A DNA stretch of 64,000 nt, taken from Fimbriimonadales bacterium. GTDB taxonomy: Bacteria; Armatimonadota; Fimbriimonadia; Fimbriimonadales; ATM1. Position numbers and translations under genes: made by a program. Positions 2,501 to 7,977 of this stretch are shown here, piece by piece; the stretch's first letter is position 1, and every line of letters begins with the position of its first letter. The notes beneath the pieces were generated by a model. It saw nothing but the letters and a program-made list of their open reading frames with translations, had not been told where the DNA came from and made no database searches. The stretch is from assembly GCA_041744215.1 (NCBI GenBank), contig JBGTLG010000004.1:1-64000 (forward strand), read 5' to 3'.

Positions 2501-5195
2501 ATGACTCCCCAGGAATTCATAAACAAGTGGCGCGACGCCAACCTTCGGGAGAGGCAGTTTGCACAAGAGCACTTTCTCGATATCTGCCGCCTTGTTGGTC
2601 ACCCGACCCCTGCACAGGTGGACAAGGACGGTTCAGAGTTCTGCTTCGAGCGTGGTGCTAAGAAGCGCGCTGGCGAGGATGGCTGGGCCAGACGTCTGGA
2701 AGCGTGGAGCCTTCGCGTGGGAGTACAAGGGCAAGCGCGCCTATCTGCAGCAGGCTCTCCATCAGGTCGAACAGTACCAGGCAGACCTCGAAAGTCCACC
2801 GCTGCTGGTAGCCGCCGACGCCCGCAAAATCCAGGTTCACACCCGTTTCACCAATACAGCAAGTGAAGTGATCGACATCGACTTGCTCAGCGTCGACCAG
2901 CCGGTCGTCCTGCAGTTACTCAGAAACGTCTTTCACAATCCCGAAGCCTTTCGCCCGAAAGCCACTCGCGACGAAGTCACGAAAGAAGCAGCGGCTACCG
3001 TGGGCGACTTGGCAAAGGTTCTGAAGAACCGAGGTGAGGATTCTCAGAAAGTCGCCCACTTCTTGGTGCAGTGCGTATTCTGCTTCTTTGCAGAAGACAT
3101 CGGACTCCTGCCCGACAAGCTCTTTCAACAGATACACGACAATGCTGGTCACAGCATCGAGCGATACGTCAAGGCAGTCACCAGCTTGTTTGAGCAGATG
3201 CGCGCCGGTGGCGATTTGTTCGCGCTCGAGATTCGATACTTCAATGGGCGGCTATTCGAGTCCATTGACCCGCCGAACTTGGCGAACGCCGACCTGCTGA
3301 TCCTCCAGCGCCTGGCCCGCATGGACTGGTCACAAATCCAGCCCGAAGTCATCGGAACGCTTTTCGAGCGGGGCCTCGATGACTCGAGCAAGGCTAAGCT
3401 CGGCGCACACTACACTAGCGCAGACGACATCATGGCGATCATCGAGCCAGTCGTATTGTGGCCGCTGCGCGACGAGTTCCAGGCTGCTCAAGATCGTGTC
3501 CAAAAGCACCCAAAGAAAGCCGCAGCCGAGATTCAATTGTTGATTGATCGAATAGAGAGGCTGCGCGTGCTTGACCCTGCCTGCGGTTCCGGAAACTTCC
3601 TTTATATGGCGCTGAAAGCTGTTAAGGACTTGGAACTCGAGATAGCCAACTGGGCGGAGCAATTCGGTCCCCGACCATCCCTCGTGTTCTCGCCGGAGCA
3701 ACTCTACGGAATCGAGATCAATTCTTATGCGCACGAGTTGGCAGGCATGGTGATTTGGCTTGGCTATCTGCAGTGGATGCACGCAAACGGTCAAGTTTTC
3801 GATGAGGAACCCGTCCTGAAGCCACTCGACAACATCCGGCAAATGGATGCTTTGCTGACCGACGACGATCAGATCCCGGACTGGCCCGAGGCCGATTTCA
3901 TCATTGGGAATCCTCCCTTTATCGGGTCAAAAAAAATGCGCAAAGAACTGGGCGACCAATACGTAGATCGCCTTTTCAAAGTCTATGACGGCACTGTGCG
4001 CCGCGAGTCCGATTTCGTTTGTTATTGGCACGAGCGCGCGCGCCAATTGGTCGTGCACAACCGGGCGCAGCGCGTCGGACTGCTTGCTACGAATTCCATC
4101 CGAGGCGGTGCGAATCAGGAGACTATTCGAAAGATCAAGGAAACTTGCAACTTGTATGCAGCGTGGTCAGACCGCCCATGGATTCTTGATGGCGCGGCCG
4201 TGCGATGCTCAATGGTCATGTTTGATCGTGGAAATGAGAAGCGACGGCAACTCGACGGGCGTAGGGTGACGACAATCAATGCGGATCTCACCGACGAGCC
4301 CGCCGACCTCACACAGGCGGTTATCCTAAGAGAGAATACTGGACTAGCATTCATGGGCGACACAAAGGGTGGATCTTTCGACATTTCCGTACAGGTTGCG
4401 GAACATTTGCTTGAGCAATCAAACCCTCACGGACGACCCAACTCTGATGTGGTTCGCCCATGGATCAACGGGAAGGACATCGTCCAGCGGCCCCGCAACA
4501 TGTGGATCATCGACTTTGGTGTTGACATGGCTCCATCGGACGCCGCAAGGTATGAGGCCCCATTCGAGTATGTAAAAGAACATATCTATCCGATTAGAAC
4601 GGAGAATCGAAGGGAAGCGTATGCGAAGAGATGGTGGCTCCATGTCGAACCTCGACCGGCGATGCGAGCAGCGCTATCGCCGCTCTCGCGATTCATTGTC
4701 ACGCCTCGTGTGTCCGAGCATCGACTTTTCGTGTGGGTTTTGCACCCGACGTTGCCTGATAGCGCCACGATCGCCTTCGCTCGCGAAGACGACTTTTTCT
4801 TCGGGATCCTCCATTCTCGGGTTCATGAGTTGTGGTCTAGGCGCCTCCGCACCTCCCTGGAGGATCGCTTTCGATACACGCCCACGACCTGCTTCGAGAC
4901 ATTCCCGTTCCCGACGATAGAACCTGGCGATCCACGCGCCCGAGAAGTGGCAGACGCAGCGGCTGAACTCGTCAACCTCCGGGACACCGCACTGACCGGC
5001 GACAAGAAACTGACGCTGACCAAGCTGTACAACAAACGACCAACCTGGCTCGCGAACGCGCATAGCAAAGTGGATGCGGCGGTTATCGCCGCCTATGATT
5101 GGCCATCAAGCGTATCTGACAGCGAGATCTTGGAACGGCTCTTGGACGAGAACAAGCGGCGCTCTCTAGCCGAGAGGGGGCTTGGGGGTAGGTAG
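2501..5195 (+). pseudogene. MmeI/YeeA-like type IIL restriction-modification enzyme (endonuclease plus N6-adenine methyltransferase) with a +1 frameshift near 2690
   Basis: ATG2501 MTPQEFINKW...EDGWA continues in the next frame as DVWKRGAFAWEYKGK (PD-(D/E)xK-like). Downstream: GAHYT, VLDPACGSGNFL (motif I), IGNPPF (motif IV), RYTPTTCFETFPFP and an LTLTKLYN..P.WL..AH..VD.AV..AY.W C-terminus. Confidence 0.85.
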
Positions 5196-5491
5196 GACCG
5201 CCAACATCTACAGCTTCCGATGCTCGCTGGTCGTACTTTGCCGCCAGCGGATTGCCGTGGTTGCTTTTCCAGAGGGAGCCCCTTCGCCCGCGCAAGCCCG
5301 AATGCCCCGCACCTCGCATGGCCGCCGACCGGAGCCAGATTGAAGCTAGGAGCAACGTTAAGGTCGAGTTCCGGTGCACCACACATCCGAGGCACTGACG
5401 TGGGACGGGCGGGATCGCCTCCGTCGCGTCGAACCCGATGACGGGTAATCTCCGTCCATTGACAGACGACTTATCAGAGAGCGATTCGAGA

Positions 5492-6235
5492 ATGAACACG
5501 GAGGTCTTTCCGAACGCGCCCATAGTTGAGGCGATCCTTGACATCCGGACTAACCTGCCGGAGGACATTGACCTCGCCGCCCTCGCGAAGTTCCAGGAGT
5601 CCGTCCGAGAGCGCTATCCCAAACGTGCCGATCGCGTTGTGTGGCAAAGTGGCTTTCAAGTGGGGCAAGCTGGTGCGGTGGCAACCCACGCCTCTCAAAA
5701 TACACACGGATACCAGTTTACTTCTGAGGACGGCAAGAAGGTAGCGCAAGCGCGATTGGATGGTTTCACGCATAACAAGCTGAAGCCTTACGATCGGTGG
5801 GGGCGATTTGTCGAGGAGGCGAAAGAGCTTTGGGGCATCTATCGAGAAGTTGCGCGCCCGATTAACATCACGCGCATCGCCATTCGCTACATCAACCGGA
5901 TTGAGGTGCCCATTCCGATTGAGGACATCAAGGAGTTTTTGCTGACTGGACCCGAGATCGCACAAGGCGCCCCCCGAGCCATGGCCTCCTACTTCATGCG
6001 CCTTGTTCTTGTGAAGCAACATGTGGACCACGTCGCAATCGTCACCGAAGCCACCGACCAAGCACCGGACGACCTGAGATTCATGCCGATCATCTTTGAT
6101 ATTGACGTTTACCTTGAGAGAGTTTTCCAGCCCGAAGACGACACTATCTGGTCGGAGTTCGAGGCCATGAGGGAAATGAGGAACGAAGTGTTTTTCAGCA
6201 GCGTCACGGATAAGTGCAAGGAGTTGTTTCGATGA
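5492..6235 (+). CDS. TIGR04255-like conserved protein of unknown function
   Basis: N-terminal FPNAPIVEAILDIR, Y..W..F, RIAIRYINRI, IIFDID, C-terminal F...VTD. Family recognised from memory. Start moved to ATG5492. Confidence 0.7.
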   Translation: MNTEVFPNAPIVEAILDIRTNLPEDIDLAALAKFQESVRERYPKRADRVVWQSGFQVGQAGAVATHASQNTHGYQFTSEDGKKVAQARLDGFTHNKLKPYDRWGRFVEEAKELWGIYREVARPINITRIAIRYINRIEVPIPIEDIKEFLLTGPEIAQGAPRAMASYFMRLVLVKQHVDHVAIVTEATDQAPDDLRFMPIIFDIDVYLERVFQPEDDTIWSEFEAMREMRNEVFFSSVTDKCKELFR

Positions 6236-6654
6236 GTGTTTTTGCGCCCAACAGGCCGATAAGGCGAGCATTTTCGGGATTTGGCCTCAGTACCGAGTAT
6301 AGCCAGATCGAAAAGTTGGAGCAAGACATCGAGCGCCACTACTGGGCTCCGGTGTCTCGAGTCTCCCCATCGAAGCGATTCGCGGAACTCAGCGCAACGT
6401 GGAGGAGCGATACTGCGTTCACTTCTTCTGCCCTTCAGATGGCCACTCACCCTGCGTACCAAGAAATAATCGGTATGGGACCCGATGCTCTTCCGCTGAT
6501 CCTGCGAGAGCTTGCCGAGCGCCCGGCCCACTGGTTCTGGGCCCTTACGTCGATCAGCGGAGTGAACCCCATTGAGCCAGCGATTCGCGGCAAGTTTTCG
6601 GATATGACAAAGGCTTGGCTCGATTGGGGGCGCAAAAGGGGCTACATCGAGTGA
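6232..6654 (+). CDS. Hypothetical small helical protein (HPAYQEIIGMG..ALPLILREL..WFWAL)
   Basis: ATGA overlap with the upstream stop and GTGA overlap with the downstream start; ordered globular sequence with a HEAT-like helical pair. Confidence 0.75.
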   Translation: MSVFAPNRPIRRAFSGFGLSTEYSQIEKLEQDIERHYWAPVSRVSPSKRFAELSATWRSDTAFTSSALQMATHPAYQEIIGMGPDALPLILRELAERPAHWFWALTSISGVNPIEPAIRGKFSDMTKAWLDWGRKRGYIE

Positions 6655-7085
6655 ATCCCCTTGAGGCGGCATTCCCCAAACTTGCGCAAGCTGGATACGC
6701 GATTACAAGCCCCGCCACCACTGATTACAACTGCATCGCCTGGGCCGCGCAAGATGTTTCGGCTTGGTGGTGGCCCGATCCTCATGGCCAATACTTCTGG
6801 CCGATCGGCGTACCGCGCGAAACAAGTTTGCAGGCATTTGAACTGGCGTACGAAGAGCTTGGATTTACCAGGTGCGCCGACGGCACTGTGGAACAAGGCC
6901 AAGAGAAAATCGCGATCTACGCAGATAGCCAAGGATTGCCAACCCATGCGGCACGACTGCTGCTATCCGGCAGGTGGACCAGCAAACTCGGTCCGTACGT
7001 GGACATTGAGCACGGCACCGTTCAAGGGGTCGAGGGACCCGACTATGGCACCGTCGCCTTTTTCATGCGCCGTCCGCTGCCTTAG
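6651..7085 (+). CDS. Hypothetical protein, putative papain/NlpC-P60-like Cys-His enzyme
   Basis: GTG start overlaps the upstream TGA; motifs YNCIAWA, THAAR, WTSKLG, IEH. Confidence 0.7.
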   Translation: MNPLEAAFPKLAQAGYAITSPATTDYNCIAWAAQDVSAWWWPDPHGQYFWPIGVPRETSLQAFELAYEELGFTRCADGTVEQGQEKIAIYADSQGLPTHAARLLLSGRWTSKLGPYVDIEHGTVQGVEGPDYGTVAFFMRRPLP

Positions 7086-7095
7086 TCCGGCGCGC

Positions 7096-7263
7096 CCCAT
7101 CCCCCGCGCCCCCGACGCCGACCGAGTCGCGATCCAATCCCTCGTCCAGCAAATCCTCGACCTCAAAGCCGCCGCCCCCACCGCCGACGTGAGCAAGCTG
7201 GAAGCCGAGATAGACATCGCCATCGAATCCCACGGCGGCTTGCCCGGCGCATTCGACGAGGGC
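7096..7263 (+). pseudogene. Fused relics: C-terminus of a type IIG R-M protein (7096-7215) and a possible Doc/Fic N-terminal fragment (7216-7263)
   Basis: PIPRAPDADRVAIQSLVQQILDLKAAAPTADVSKLEAEID resembles Eco57I/TaqI-like C-termini. IAIESHGGLPGAFDEG resembles the Doc GGLPGVRDEG motif. No start codon. Confidence 0.5.
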
Positions 7264-7351
7264 ATTCCACCCGTGACATGCACTCGATTTGGGCTATTGA
7301 GTGCATCCGCTCCGACTAATGCGCCCAATGCGTGCATACCCTGGCCACTCG

Positions 7352-7555
7352 TCACTCTGCAAGGCGCTTCAATGCCCTGCCGTATTCCTTGATCGTGCGC
7401 TCGGCGGCTTCCGTGACGGTGAGGGGCTTGCGGAGGATGATGCGGCCCGTCTCATAGACGACTTCGACCGTGTCGGTGATATCGAGGTGGTCCTGCATAG
7501 TCTTATCGATCGTGAGGGCCTTGCTGTTGCCGGTTCGGATGAGCTTGCGAGTCAT
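7352..7555 (-). CDS. AbrB/MazE-family antitoxin (Doc-partner type), no intact toxin adjacent
   Basis: RKLIRTGNSKALTI swapped-hairpin motif; C-terminal EYGRALKRLAE. Confidence 0.85.
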   Translation of the reverse strand: MTRKLIRTGNSKALTIDKTMQDHLDITDTVEVVYETGRIILRKPLTVTEAAERTIKEYGRALKRLAE

Positions 7556-7977
7556 AGTCTTGTCCGTACTCCATTATGACCCGTTTGGAGGCTCCTCTGT
7601 TCCCGGGTTCTTGCTGGGTTTGCCTCGCGCCAGGTTTACTGTCGCCACGCTTCCGCCGCGCGGCGACGCTCCCAACCCCCGGGCCCCACTATCCCCCGTT
7701 CTAAGCTCCTGGCCCTAACCGAAATCACCGTCCTGGCCATAACTCCCCACCCGTAAGCGCAACGCCCCAGGTTGACAATCCCCATCCCCGAGGCCCAATG
7801 CCGGGCGGCGCTATAACTTAAGAGCTGCCGAGCGGCCGCAACGCGCGCCACCCGCCAGCCGCAAACCCGCCCCGAGTAAGGTCAAACCGACCCCGTTAAC
7901 AATTAAACAGCGTGATGACTCCGATGAGTCCTGCGAGGCGGTAGCAAAACCCCAGCCACCCCGTCAACTGCCTCATC

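Follow-up and report, generated by a model that had tools for sequence, protein, structure and literature searches.

A stretch of 64,000 nucleotides from contig JBGTLG010000004.1 of a Fimbriimonadales bacterium (Armatimonadota; assembly GCA_041744215.1), referred to below as the window, carries a 1.6 kb cassette of three overlapping genes between positions 5492 and 7085. Based on sequence comparison and structure modelling, we lean on balance towards reading this cassette as a tripartite toxin-antitoxin (TA)-like conflict module that is built on a two-gene core, in which gene 3 would be an enzymatic effector and gene 2 its inhibitor, with gene 1 as an accessory third component. The cassette has the following features.

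5492..6235, + strand: gene 1, a TIGR04255 protein of 247 aa; optional accessory gene
6232..6235, + strand: ATGA overlap of the gene 1 stop and gene 2 start codons, read directly
6232..6369, + strand: N-terminal extension of gene 2 (residues 1-46), including the motif HYWAPVSR at 6337-6360
6370..6654, + strand: conserved core of gene 2 (residues 47-140 plus the stop codon), the predicted gene 3-binding/inhibitory domain
6651..6654, + strand: GTGA overlap of the gene 2 stop and the GTG start of gene 3, read directly
6651..7085, + strand: gene 3, a DUF7689 protein of 144 aa with a GTG start; putative Cys-His effector enzyme
6732-6734 and 6945-6947, + strand: gene 3 codons for Cys28 and His99, respectively

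All three reading frames are open and lie on one strand, and the gene 2 product is 140 aa long. The starts at 5492 and 6651 match the start points of homologs in the alignments; longer open reading frames (ORFs) are also possible from 5438 (gene 1) and 6615 (gene 3). A scan of positions 5100-7700 gave no promoter-like site and two terminator sites, both within gene 2 and not above shuffle level; the sites in question are terminator-like by the criteria of the scan.

A first-pass annotation of this DNA, made from the sequence alone, had described three ORFs linked by the ATGA and GTGA overlaps, likened gene 1 to the TIGR04255 family, noted a Cys/His enzyme signature in gene 3 and matched the cassette to no named system. 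These descriptions hold. Both overlaps are present in the sequence, gene 1 matches NCBIfam TIGR04255 over nearly its full length (E = 3.5e-42, 145 bits against a cutoff of 30, model positions 2-251 of 252), and Cys28 and His99 are invariant in the DUF7689 alignment. None of the three proteins has a family in PADLOC-DB 2.0.0 (2023) at E ≤ 1, and a full-text literature search returned no paper naming TIGR04255 or DUF7689.

The gene 2-gene 3 pair

Conservation of the cassette was followed in the best 80 of 594 DUF7689 relatives, retrieved with a DUF7689 profile (A1) from a species-representative genome set. The ORFs of these loci were searched with hidden Markov models (HMMs) from A1 and from the gene 2 profile (A2), and for gene 1 by phmmer and then with an HMM of the gene 1 matches. 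A gene 2 homolog lies directly upstream of the DUF7689 gene, on the same strand, in 79 loci; the one exception, L041, is truncated at base 2 of its locus. Gene 1 lies directly upstream of gene 2 in 34 of the 80 loci, giving the full triplet, and 28 of these 34 have a 4-base overlap between gene 1 and gene 2 (maximal ORFs). Since the pair and the triplet recur at these frequencies, the arrangement in the window is not a chance one. In six of the 46 loci that lack gene 1 (L026, L041, L046, L065, L070, and L078), the upstream sequence is shorter than 800 bases, so that 74 loci can be judged, with gene 1 present in 34 and absent from 40. We therefore regard the gene 2-gene 3 pair as the conserved unit and gene 1 as a facultative third member. 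The first-pass annotation had proposed checking whether homologs keep this gene order; the order of gene 2 and gene 3 is kept, and gene 1 is outside the conserved core. As in type II TA systems, the pair consists of adjacent, co-directional small genes that are kept together.

By their record titles, the loci come from Nitrospirota, Planctomycetota, Cyanobacteriota, Armatimonadota, Acidobacteriota, Thermodesulfobacteriota, Chloroflexota, and others. Some genomes carry two copies (L023 and L031, L019 and L055, L029 and L047, L040 and L064). Decayed copies are also found: gene 3 is in two pieces in L061 (7950-8450), and L030 (7326-8004) has a gene 2 truncated to 60 aa, preceded by a 46-aa remnant of gene 1. 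In loci that lack gene 1, upstream ORFs of 227-264 aa in Nostoc and in L010, L044, L060, and L077/L079 match neither TIGR04255 nor another family and were therefore not counted as gene 1 analogues. In the Nostoc loci L016, L018, L035, and L043 (around 6713-7498), and also in L032, a conserved ORF of 227-229 aa lies between psaB and gene 2, in the position that gene 1 occupies elsewhere.

Gene 3 belongs to the Pfam family PF24738 (DUF7689; E = 4.2e-41, 140.8 bits against a threshold of 22.6, model positions 2-118 of 118). A word-indexed search gave 559 DUF7689 homologs, and an exhaustive search gave 4,482 clusters at 50% identity (E ≤ 0.001). The protein is nearly always a stand-alone one, as 143 of the best 150 clusters are shorter than 240 aa. 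Across 36 sequences, the invariant residues are S20, Y26, N27, C28, I29, A30, P42, W50, and P51 in the N-terminal half and H99, W109, S111, K112, G114, D118, H121, and G133 further on. In the AlphaFold2 (AF2) model (predicted local distance difference test, pLDDT, 94.7), Cys28 opens a helix (28-32), His99 lies in a strand (97-103), and D118 and H121 lie in another (118-121). The modelled arrangement corresponds to the papain/NlpC-P60 layout, with the Cys at the N-terminus of a helix and the His and a third polar residue on adjacent strands. A Foldseek search of the model against the PDB returned mostly NlpC/P60 and papain-like enzymes, along with AvrPphB and phytochelatin synthase, and the list includes the papain-like interbacterial toxins 9l5u and 8ssm. 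Gene 3 has no NlpC/P60 or CHAP match in Pfam at E ≤ 1 and no significant similarity to an established papain/NlpC-P60 member. Because the fold matches are weak, we describe it as a Cys-His enzyme with a papain-like layout and not as a proven member of that superfamily.

Two further occurrences of DUF7689 were noted. Protein P0386 (528 aa) has a Ser in place of the invariant Cys (FNSVAFA), and its DUF7689 domain follows an N-terminal region of 380 residues without a family. Two Bacteroidales plasmids (L088, 72-1058, and L089, 2274-4322) contain DUF7689-like stretches (29% identity, E of about 1e-5); one of them adjoins a gene with a type IX secretion system (T9SS) sorting domain, and no gene-2-like neighbour is annotated at either.

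Gene 2 has no match in Pfam, NCBIfam or PADLOC, its profile A2 gave only noise against the PDB (ClpB at E ≥ 0.19), and the ESM Atlas returned only ‘hypothetical protein’ clusters. Its 215 homologs have no family either. The conserved part is the C-terminal region of about 95 residues, with the motifs HPAYQEIIGMG and HWFWAL and with invariant residues that include F50, W57, S65, Y76, Q77, and W101-F102-W103. This core behaves as a module. Among 18 longer gene 2-type proteins it is C-terminal in all 10 that were checked, and it forms the C-terminal module of an 877-aa N6 DNA methyltransferase (P0412), is fused to a response-regulator receiver (P0408), and follows an N-terminal domain of about 230 aa without a family in four proteins of about 320 aa (P0400, P0402, P0405, and P0410). 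Some relatives carry DNA-binding or antitoxin-type modules: an RHH, GntR or HTH_XRE domain occurs in 3 of the 120 listed gene 2 homologs, weak Phd/YefM matches occur in 2 of 79 gene 2 proteins, and in L019 (3436-4044) an HU-type domain (Bac_DNA_binding, 1.6e-18) comes after the core within a single ORF.

A direct tie between the two proteins is found in P0278, a natural fusion of a gene 2 core (residues 63-153) to DUF7689 (residues 160-300). We also predicted the complex of gene 3 with residues 47-140 of gene 2, alongside three controls. The interface score ipSAE was 0.81, 0.80, and 0.78 for the pair and 0.00 for the best of the three controls; the runs agree on at least 98% of contacts, and the partner pLDDT is at least 92. 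Of 157 solved complexes, 116 attained the mark used for such predictions, as did 2 of 215 mismatched pairs. The interface includes residues 27-29, 96-100, and 112-116 of gene 3, which cover Cys28, His99, and Lys112, and residues 62-69, 98-103, and 119-123 of gene 2, which cover the invariant Ser65 and the WFW motif. As the interface lies over Cys28 and His99, the model has gene 2 capping the putative active site in the manner of an inhibitor. The prediction supports binding of gene 3 by gene 2. The first-pass annotation had proposed an inhibitor and an enzymatic effector, and this proposal gains computational support from the conserved linkage, the P0278 fusion, and the predicted complex over the Cys/His site.

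Gene 1 and the N-terminal extension of gene 2

Gene 1 has no Pfam family, and the ESM Atlas returned only ‘TIGR04255 family’ clusters. Its AF2 model (pLDDT 91.7) consists of two beta-alpha-beta4-alpha repeats. Foldseek gave remote matches only, with a template modelling (TM) score of about 0.3, led by AdoMetDC/prozyme (E = 1.5e-4) and TBP (2e-3), then McsB and RepDE. Against viral structures, the matches were unnamed or remotely TBP/CYTH-like (TM ≤ 0.43) and thus uninformative, and the gene 1 profile (A3) had no match in the PDB. Residues P43, Y100, R132 (Y133), D203 (D205), F234, and T239 are kept across TIGR04255.

The presence of gene 1 goes along with a feature of gene 2. Gene 2 proteins linked to gene 1, including the one in the window, have in common an N-terminal extension that contains a motif resembling H-Y/F-x-x-P-x-S/T-R. 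A strict regular expression for this motif matches 22 of 35 gene 1-linked gene 2 proteins and 0 of 45 without gene 1, and several of the 13 misses are near-variants by eye. A comparison at the guaB-guaA site of Nitrospirota is instructive in this respect. Loci L020 (6724-7980) and L003 carry gene 1 and a 147-aa gene 2 at this site; at the same site, L006 (7617-7980), a close relative of both, has lost gene 1 together with the N-terminal 46 residues of gene 2, and it retains an intact gene 3 and a gene 2 core that is 83% identical. Gene 1 and this N-terminal stretch thus behave as a single removable unit.

TIGR04255 genes also occur in other cassettes. A tblastn search placed them on seven plasmids and one phage record, and we examined the contexts of seven of these (six plasmids and the phage). 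In all seven, the TIGR04255 gene is followed by a small gene on the same strand at a distance of -14 to +118 bases, and in five a third gene lies within 10 bases. On a Vibrio parahaemolyticus plasmid, the downstream genes encode a 179-aa protein without a family and then a zeta toxin (Pfam Zeta_toxin, 3.1e-12). The other plasmids have proteins of 182 and 171 aa without assigned function (Crinalium), proteins of 70 and 192 aa in a cassette that adjoins an ‘abortive infection family protein’ (Methylocystis), a helix-turn-helix (HTH)/Xre-like protein of 189 aa followed by one of 273 aa (Acinetobacter baumannii), an HTH regulator (Rhodococcus), and a 147-aa protein without assigned function (Thermus). 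In Ralstonia phage YO139_2 (L087, 371-2061), two ORFs of 165 and 146 aa come after the TIGR04255 gene, with junctions of 4 bases (an overlap) and 9 bases; this cassette is located close to an end of the P2-like phage record, which is unannotated, and neither downstream ORF has a Pfam family. The downstream proteins of the seven cassettes do not match the HMMs of gene 1, 2 or 3, and inspection by eye of their middle proteins revealed no convincing shared N-terminal motif. Considering how varied these seven cassettes are, TIGR04255 looks like a modular lead gene of small mobile cassettes whose downstream pairs are interchangeable.

In the module that we propose, gene 3 would be a small cytoplasmic enzyme with a papain/NlpC-P60-like Cys28-His99-(Asp118/His121) centre, which, when free, would cleave or modify a cellular target. 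Gene 2 would be its dedicated inhibitor, with the C-terminal domain of about 95 residues clamped over the Cys/His cleft at the predicted interface. Gene 1 may bind the N-terminal extension of gene 2 and so control its stability or availability, acting as a stabiliser or sensor by analogy with the SecB-like chaperone of toxin-antitoxin-chaperone (TAC) systems; a role of gene 1 as a transcription regulator is less likely. The part of sensor or chaperone that the first-pass annotation had proposed is thus plausible for gene 1. Loss or sequestration of gene 2, for example upon phage infection or loss of the element, would then free gene 3 and stop growth.

A wider generalization is possible, and we advance it only tentatively. 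TIGR04255 might be a new promiscuous third component and DUF7689 a new family of cysteine-hydrolase toxins, which together would make up widespread tripartite abortive-infection or addiction modules. TIGR04255 would in that case be a non-SecB stabiliser or sensor that gates unrelated TA pairs (zeta toxin, DUF7689 with its roughly 4,500 clusters at 50% identity, and five or more further undescribed pairs) via a disordered N-terminal extension of the antitoxin.

Neighbourhoods and alternative explanations

To describe the surroundings of the 80 loci, the two ORFs closest to the cassette on either side, 274 in total, were scanned against Pfam. A restriction-modification (R-M), TA, defence or insertion sequence (IS) gene is present among the four nearest ORFs in 23 of the 80 loci, a raw count with no matched control. 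Conflict-type neighbours include Fic, PIN, NACHT, TIR, caspase-iSTAND, HEPN/MNT, ParE, BrnT, and IstB. Parts of R-M systems flank 13 loci (L003, L009, L016, L018, L023, L024, L032, L034, L041, L058, L061, L063, and L066), some of which are near-duplicates of each other. In two of them, L063 (3951-11232) and L066 (1392-7163), the three-gene cassette is inserted between hsdR-type and hsdM/hsdS-type genes of type I R-M operons. These raw counts, again with no matched control, suggest an enrichment near defence genes. In L034 and L041, an hsdS-type gene lies directly downstream.

Two features flank the cassette in the window itself.

2559..5195, + strand: MmeI-family (type IIL) R-M gene directly upstream (Pfam MmeI_Mtase 2.6e-33, MmeI_hel, MmeI_TRD, Eco57I)
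7352..7555, - strand: small orphan ORF of 67 aa, AbrB/MazE-type antitoxin-like

The MmeI-family gene is an 878-aa ORF starting from TTG at 2559, with helicase-spacer, methyltransferase, TRD, and C-terminal domains; its N-terminal nuclease part has no Pfam match. A 207-aa ORF without a family (2243-2866) overlaps its start in another frame. Upstream of the MmeI-family gene are TatD-type and MoCF-type genes and a partial AAA_14 gene; the latter (1-369, - strand, at the window edge; AAA_14 1.3e-22, with a weak nSTAND3 match) encodes an ATPase of a type frequent in conflict systems. Downstream of the cassette there are about 900 bases without a clear gene, followed by genes for a redoxin, a Cys/Met pyridoxal phosphate (PLP) enzyme, and homoserine dehydrogenase, then lysS, greA, and a flagellar cluster. 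The orphan ORF within the downstream region has no Pfam match; it resembles TIGR02609 (doc_partner) with E = 5.9e-5 and 23.4 bits, below the cutoff of 55.9, and PDB entry 7d2n, an AbrB/MazE/SpoVT protein, with E = 0.14. Since no recognisable toxin gene adjoins it, it could represent either an antitoxin without a partner or what is left of a TA pair. The first-pass annotation had placed the cassette in a defence island, between a type IIL R-M gene and relics of a type IIG R-M gene and a TA pair. The type IIL gene is confirmed as a member of the MmeI family, the TA relic is reduced to the sub-threshold TIGR02609 resemblance, and the proposed type IIG relic at about 7096-7392 was rejected, having no Pfam or NCBIfam match. 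With housekeeping genes on both sides and a single R-M gene, the case for a defence island is weak in the window, which instead presents a small islet beside one R-M gene.

Several points weigh against a TA-like conflict module. The 80 loci are the closest of the 594 relatives, so distant DUF7689 genes may be arranged differently, and the DUF7689-like stretches on the two Bacteroidales plasmids lie inside larger hypothetical proteins. As to the fold of gene 3, the best Foldseek match is 3h41 (E = 0.067, probability 0.77, TM 0.36), the matches as a whole have TM scores of 0.3-0.4 and are not significant, and the DUF7689 sequence profile A1 has no match in the PDB at E ≤ 10. The calibration of the complex score is only rough here because the alignments were self-supplied. 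The window gene 2 has no DNA-binding domain in Pfam or NCBIfam, unlike classic type II antitoxins. The association of the extension motif with gene 1 has a Fisher p of 5e-11, which ignores phylogeny, and the presence of gene 1 is clustered on a quick gene 3 tree (leaving out L061), where it requires 14 changes against 26.4 in shuffles. None of 500 shuffles was as low as 14; strongly supported branches require at least three changes, and the loci with gene 1 do not form one clade. Two of the best 150 DUF7689 clusters (P0260 and P0305) are fused to dephospho-CoA kinase, with the CoaE domain at the C-terminus of DUF7689 (Pfam 1.6e-40 and 2.9e-16). These could be real fusions or read-through gene calls; they could hint at an activity linked to coenzyme A (CoA) and thereby at a metabolic role. 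Finally, the four nearest ORFs show no conflict-type match in 57 of the 80 loci, and many neighbours are housekeeping genes (guaB/guaA, psaB).

The conflict module may, as a sub-case, be dedicated to anti-phage abortive infection: gene 1 would sense a phage protein, gene 2 would be released or destabilised, and gene 3 would kill or arrest the cell. We see this as a possibility short of an even chance. It draws on the position of the window cassette directly after the MmeI-type gene, the R-M parts at 13 loci (including the insertions into the type I operons of L063 and L066), and the TIR, NACHT, caspase-iSTAND, Fic, and HEPN/MNT neighbours elsewhere. The TIGR04255 cassettes at the end of the Ralstonia P2-like phage and beside the Methylocystis ‘abortive infection family protein’ point the same way, and TAC systems reportedly work likewise (10.1101/2024.02.24.581848; PMC11618068). 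Against it stand the lack of any of the three proteins in PADLOC-DB 2.0 and the 57 loci without a conflict-type gene among the four nearest ORFs, in counts that have no matched control.

Rather unlikely, in our view, is a role outside conflict, in which gene 3 would act as a hydrolase or transferase with a housekeeping or niche function (for example an amidase, or an acyl- or CoA-related enzyme that depends on a thiol). Gene 2 would then be a subunit for its regulation or assembly, and gene 1 an accessory protein that binds a ligand. The frequent metabolic neighbours, the DUF7689-CoaE fusions, and the fusions of the gene 2 core to a response-regulator receiver and an N6 methyltransferase would fit such a role. 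It is harder to reconcile with the sporadic, multi-copy distribution over many phyla without a conserved metabolic neighbourhood, with the antitoxin-type N-terminal modules of some gene 2 relatives, and with the existence of decayed copies; moreover, the surface that gene 2 is predicted to cover is that of the catalytic Cys/His residues and not one distant from them.

A different role for gene 1 was considered as well, namely that it is the transcription regulator of the operon and replaces the DNA-binding N-terminal domain of other gene 2 lineages. Separate regulators exist in three-component TA systems, such as omega in omega-epsilon-zeta and PaaR in PaaR-PaaA-ParE, and a zeta toxin closes one of the TIGR04255 cassettes. 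Among the remote fold matches of gene 1 are the DNA-binding TBP (E = 2e-3) and the RepDE initiator, and the gene 2 proteins linked to gene 1 have no DNA-binding Pfam domain, while a few other gene 2 homologs do. Those fold matches, however, reach TM scores of only about 0.3 and are headed by an enzyme, AdoMetDC. In the Rhodococcus and Acinetobacter cassettes the second gene is itself of HTH type, which would make a second regulator redundant, and the tight link with a short linear motif of gene 2 fits protein-protein recognition better. We consider this role improbable. It is very improbable that the cassette is a relic of a polymorphic toxin system, in the form of an orphan interbacterial effector-immunity pair. 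This reading is suggested by the presence of a papain-like toxin/immunity pair (9l5u) and a contact-dependent inhibition (CDI) toxin (8ssm) in the Foldseek list of gene 3 (E of about 0.15), but most DUF7689 clusters are short (143 of the best 150 below 240 aa). Of the longer or extended clusters, 10 were read, and none has a trafficking or Rhs/CdiA-type N-terminal domain; in addition, the gene order, with the putative immunity gene ahead of the effector, is that of type II TA systems.

Relation to known systems

The TA-like module that we favour can be compared with several described systems. PrrC is a stand-alone effector embedded in the type Ic prr R-M locus. The cassette resembles it in location, as it directly follows the MmeI-type gene in the window and, in L063 and L066, lies within hsdR...hsdS operons; it differs in having no sequence or fold relation to PrrC and in being linked to R-M genes in only 13 of the 80 loci. 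The systems omega-epsilon-zeta and PaaR-PaaA-ParE share the three-gene composition, and the Vibrio TIGR04255 cassette even ends in a zeta-toxin gene, but gene 1 has no RHH or HTH domain in Pfam.

Gene 3 has the layout of NlpC/P60-papain hydrolases and toxins (3h41, 2hbw, 1ukf, 9l5u, and 8ssm), with a Cys at a helix N-terminus, a His in a strand, and a polar residue in the next strand. Such hydrolases are reported to include interbacterial toxins with immunity proteins (PMC12136450). Gene 3 differs from this group in having no significant match to it (best TM 0.36, identity 9-20%), and it lacks a signal peptide or trafficking domain.

With type II TA systems, the pair shares the small size and overlap of its genes, the order of antitoxin before toxin, a distribution that is sporadic and multi-copy, a partner that is predicted to occlude the active site, and, in some relatives, RHH, HTH or Phd-like N-termini. 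The differences lie in the toxin candidate, a Cys-His enzyme with a papain-like layout, and in the antitoxin candidate of the window, which is devoid of a DNA-binding domain. To our knowledge, the papain-like fold is not known from any described type II toxin. A literature search for papain-like TA or tripartite TA systems returned analogies only.

The closest parallel in design is offered by the TAC systems, which include HigBA-SecB of Mycobacterium and CmdTAC (PMC5105189; PMC6377645; PMC11618068; 10.1101/2024.02.24.581848). The likeness to these systems, as reported, extends to three co-directional genes, a TA core that can occur without the third gene, a third protein tied to a short extension of the antitoxin (a binding that is presumed for the cassette), and a third gene that is combined with unrelated toxins, as TIGR04255 is with DUF7689, zeta toxin, and others. 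Unlike the SecB-like chaperone, gene 1 belongs to TIGR04255 and shows a duplication of an alpha+beta fold; it has no SecB match in Pfam or NCBIfam at E ≤ 1, and no SecB is among the Foldseek matches listed. Gene 1 is also the first gene in the operon, and the extension linked to it is N-terminal (residues 1-46) and not C-terminal, with the core of gene 2 running to the C-terminus.

An effector that is gated by an inhibitor and joined by a third, accessory protein follows a known logic, while the three families and their combination are undescribed in the sources searched, all three proteins coming from families without a studied member. If the proposed module is correct, DUF7689 would add a new enzymatic toxin class to toxin-antitoxin biology, and there would be a first functional handle on TIGR04255, a family that NCBI could name by number only. 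The comparison with TAC systems further suggests that the cassette would represent a second, SecB-independent version of the design in which a third partner gates the antitoxin, a design that TAC systems use for phage sensing.

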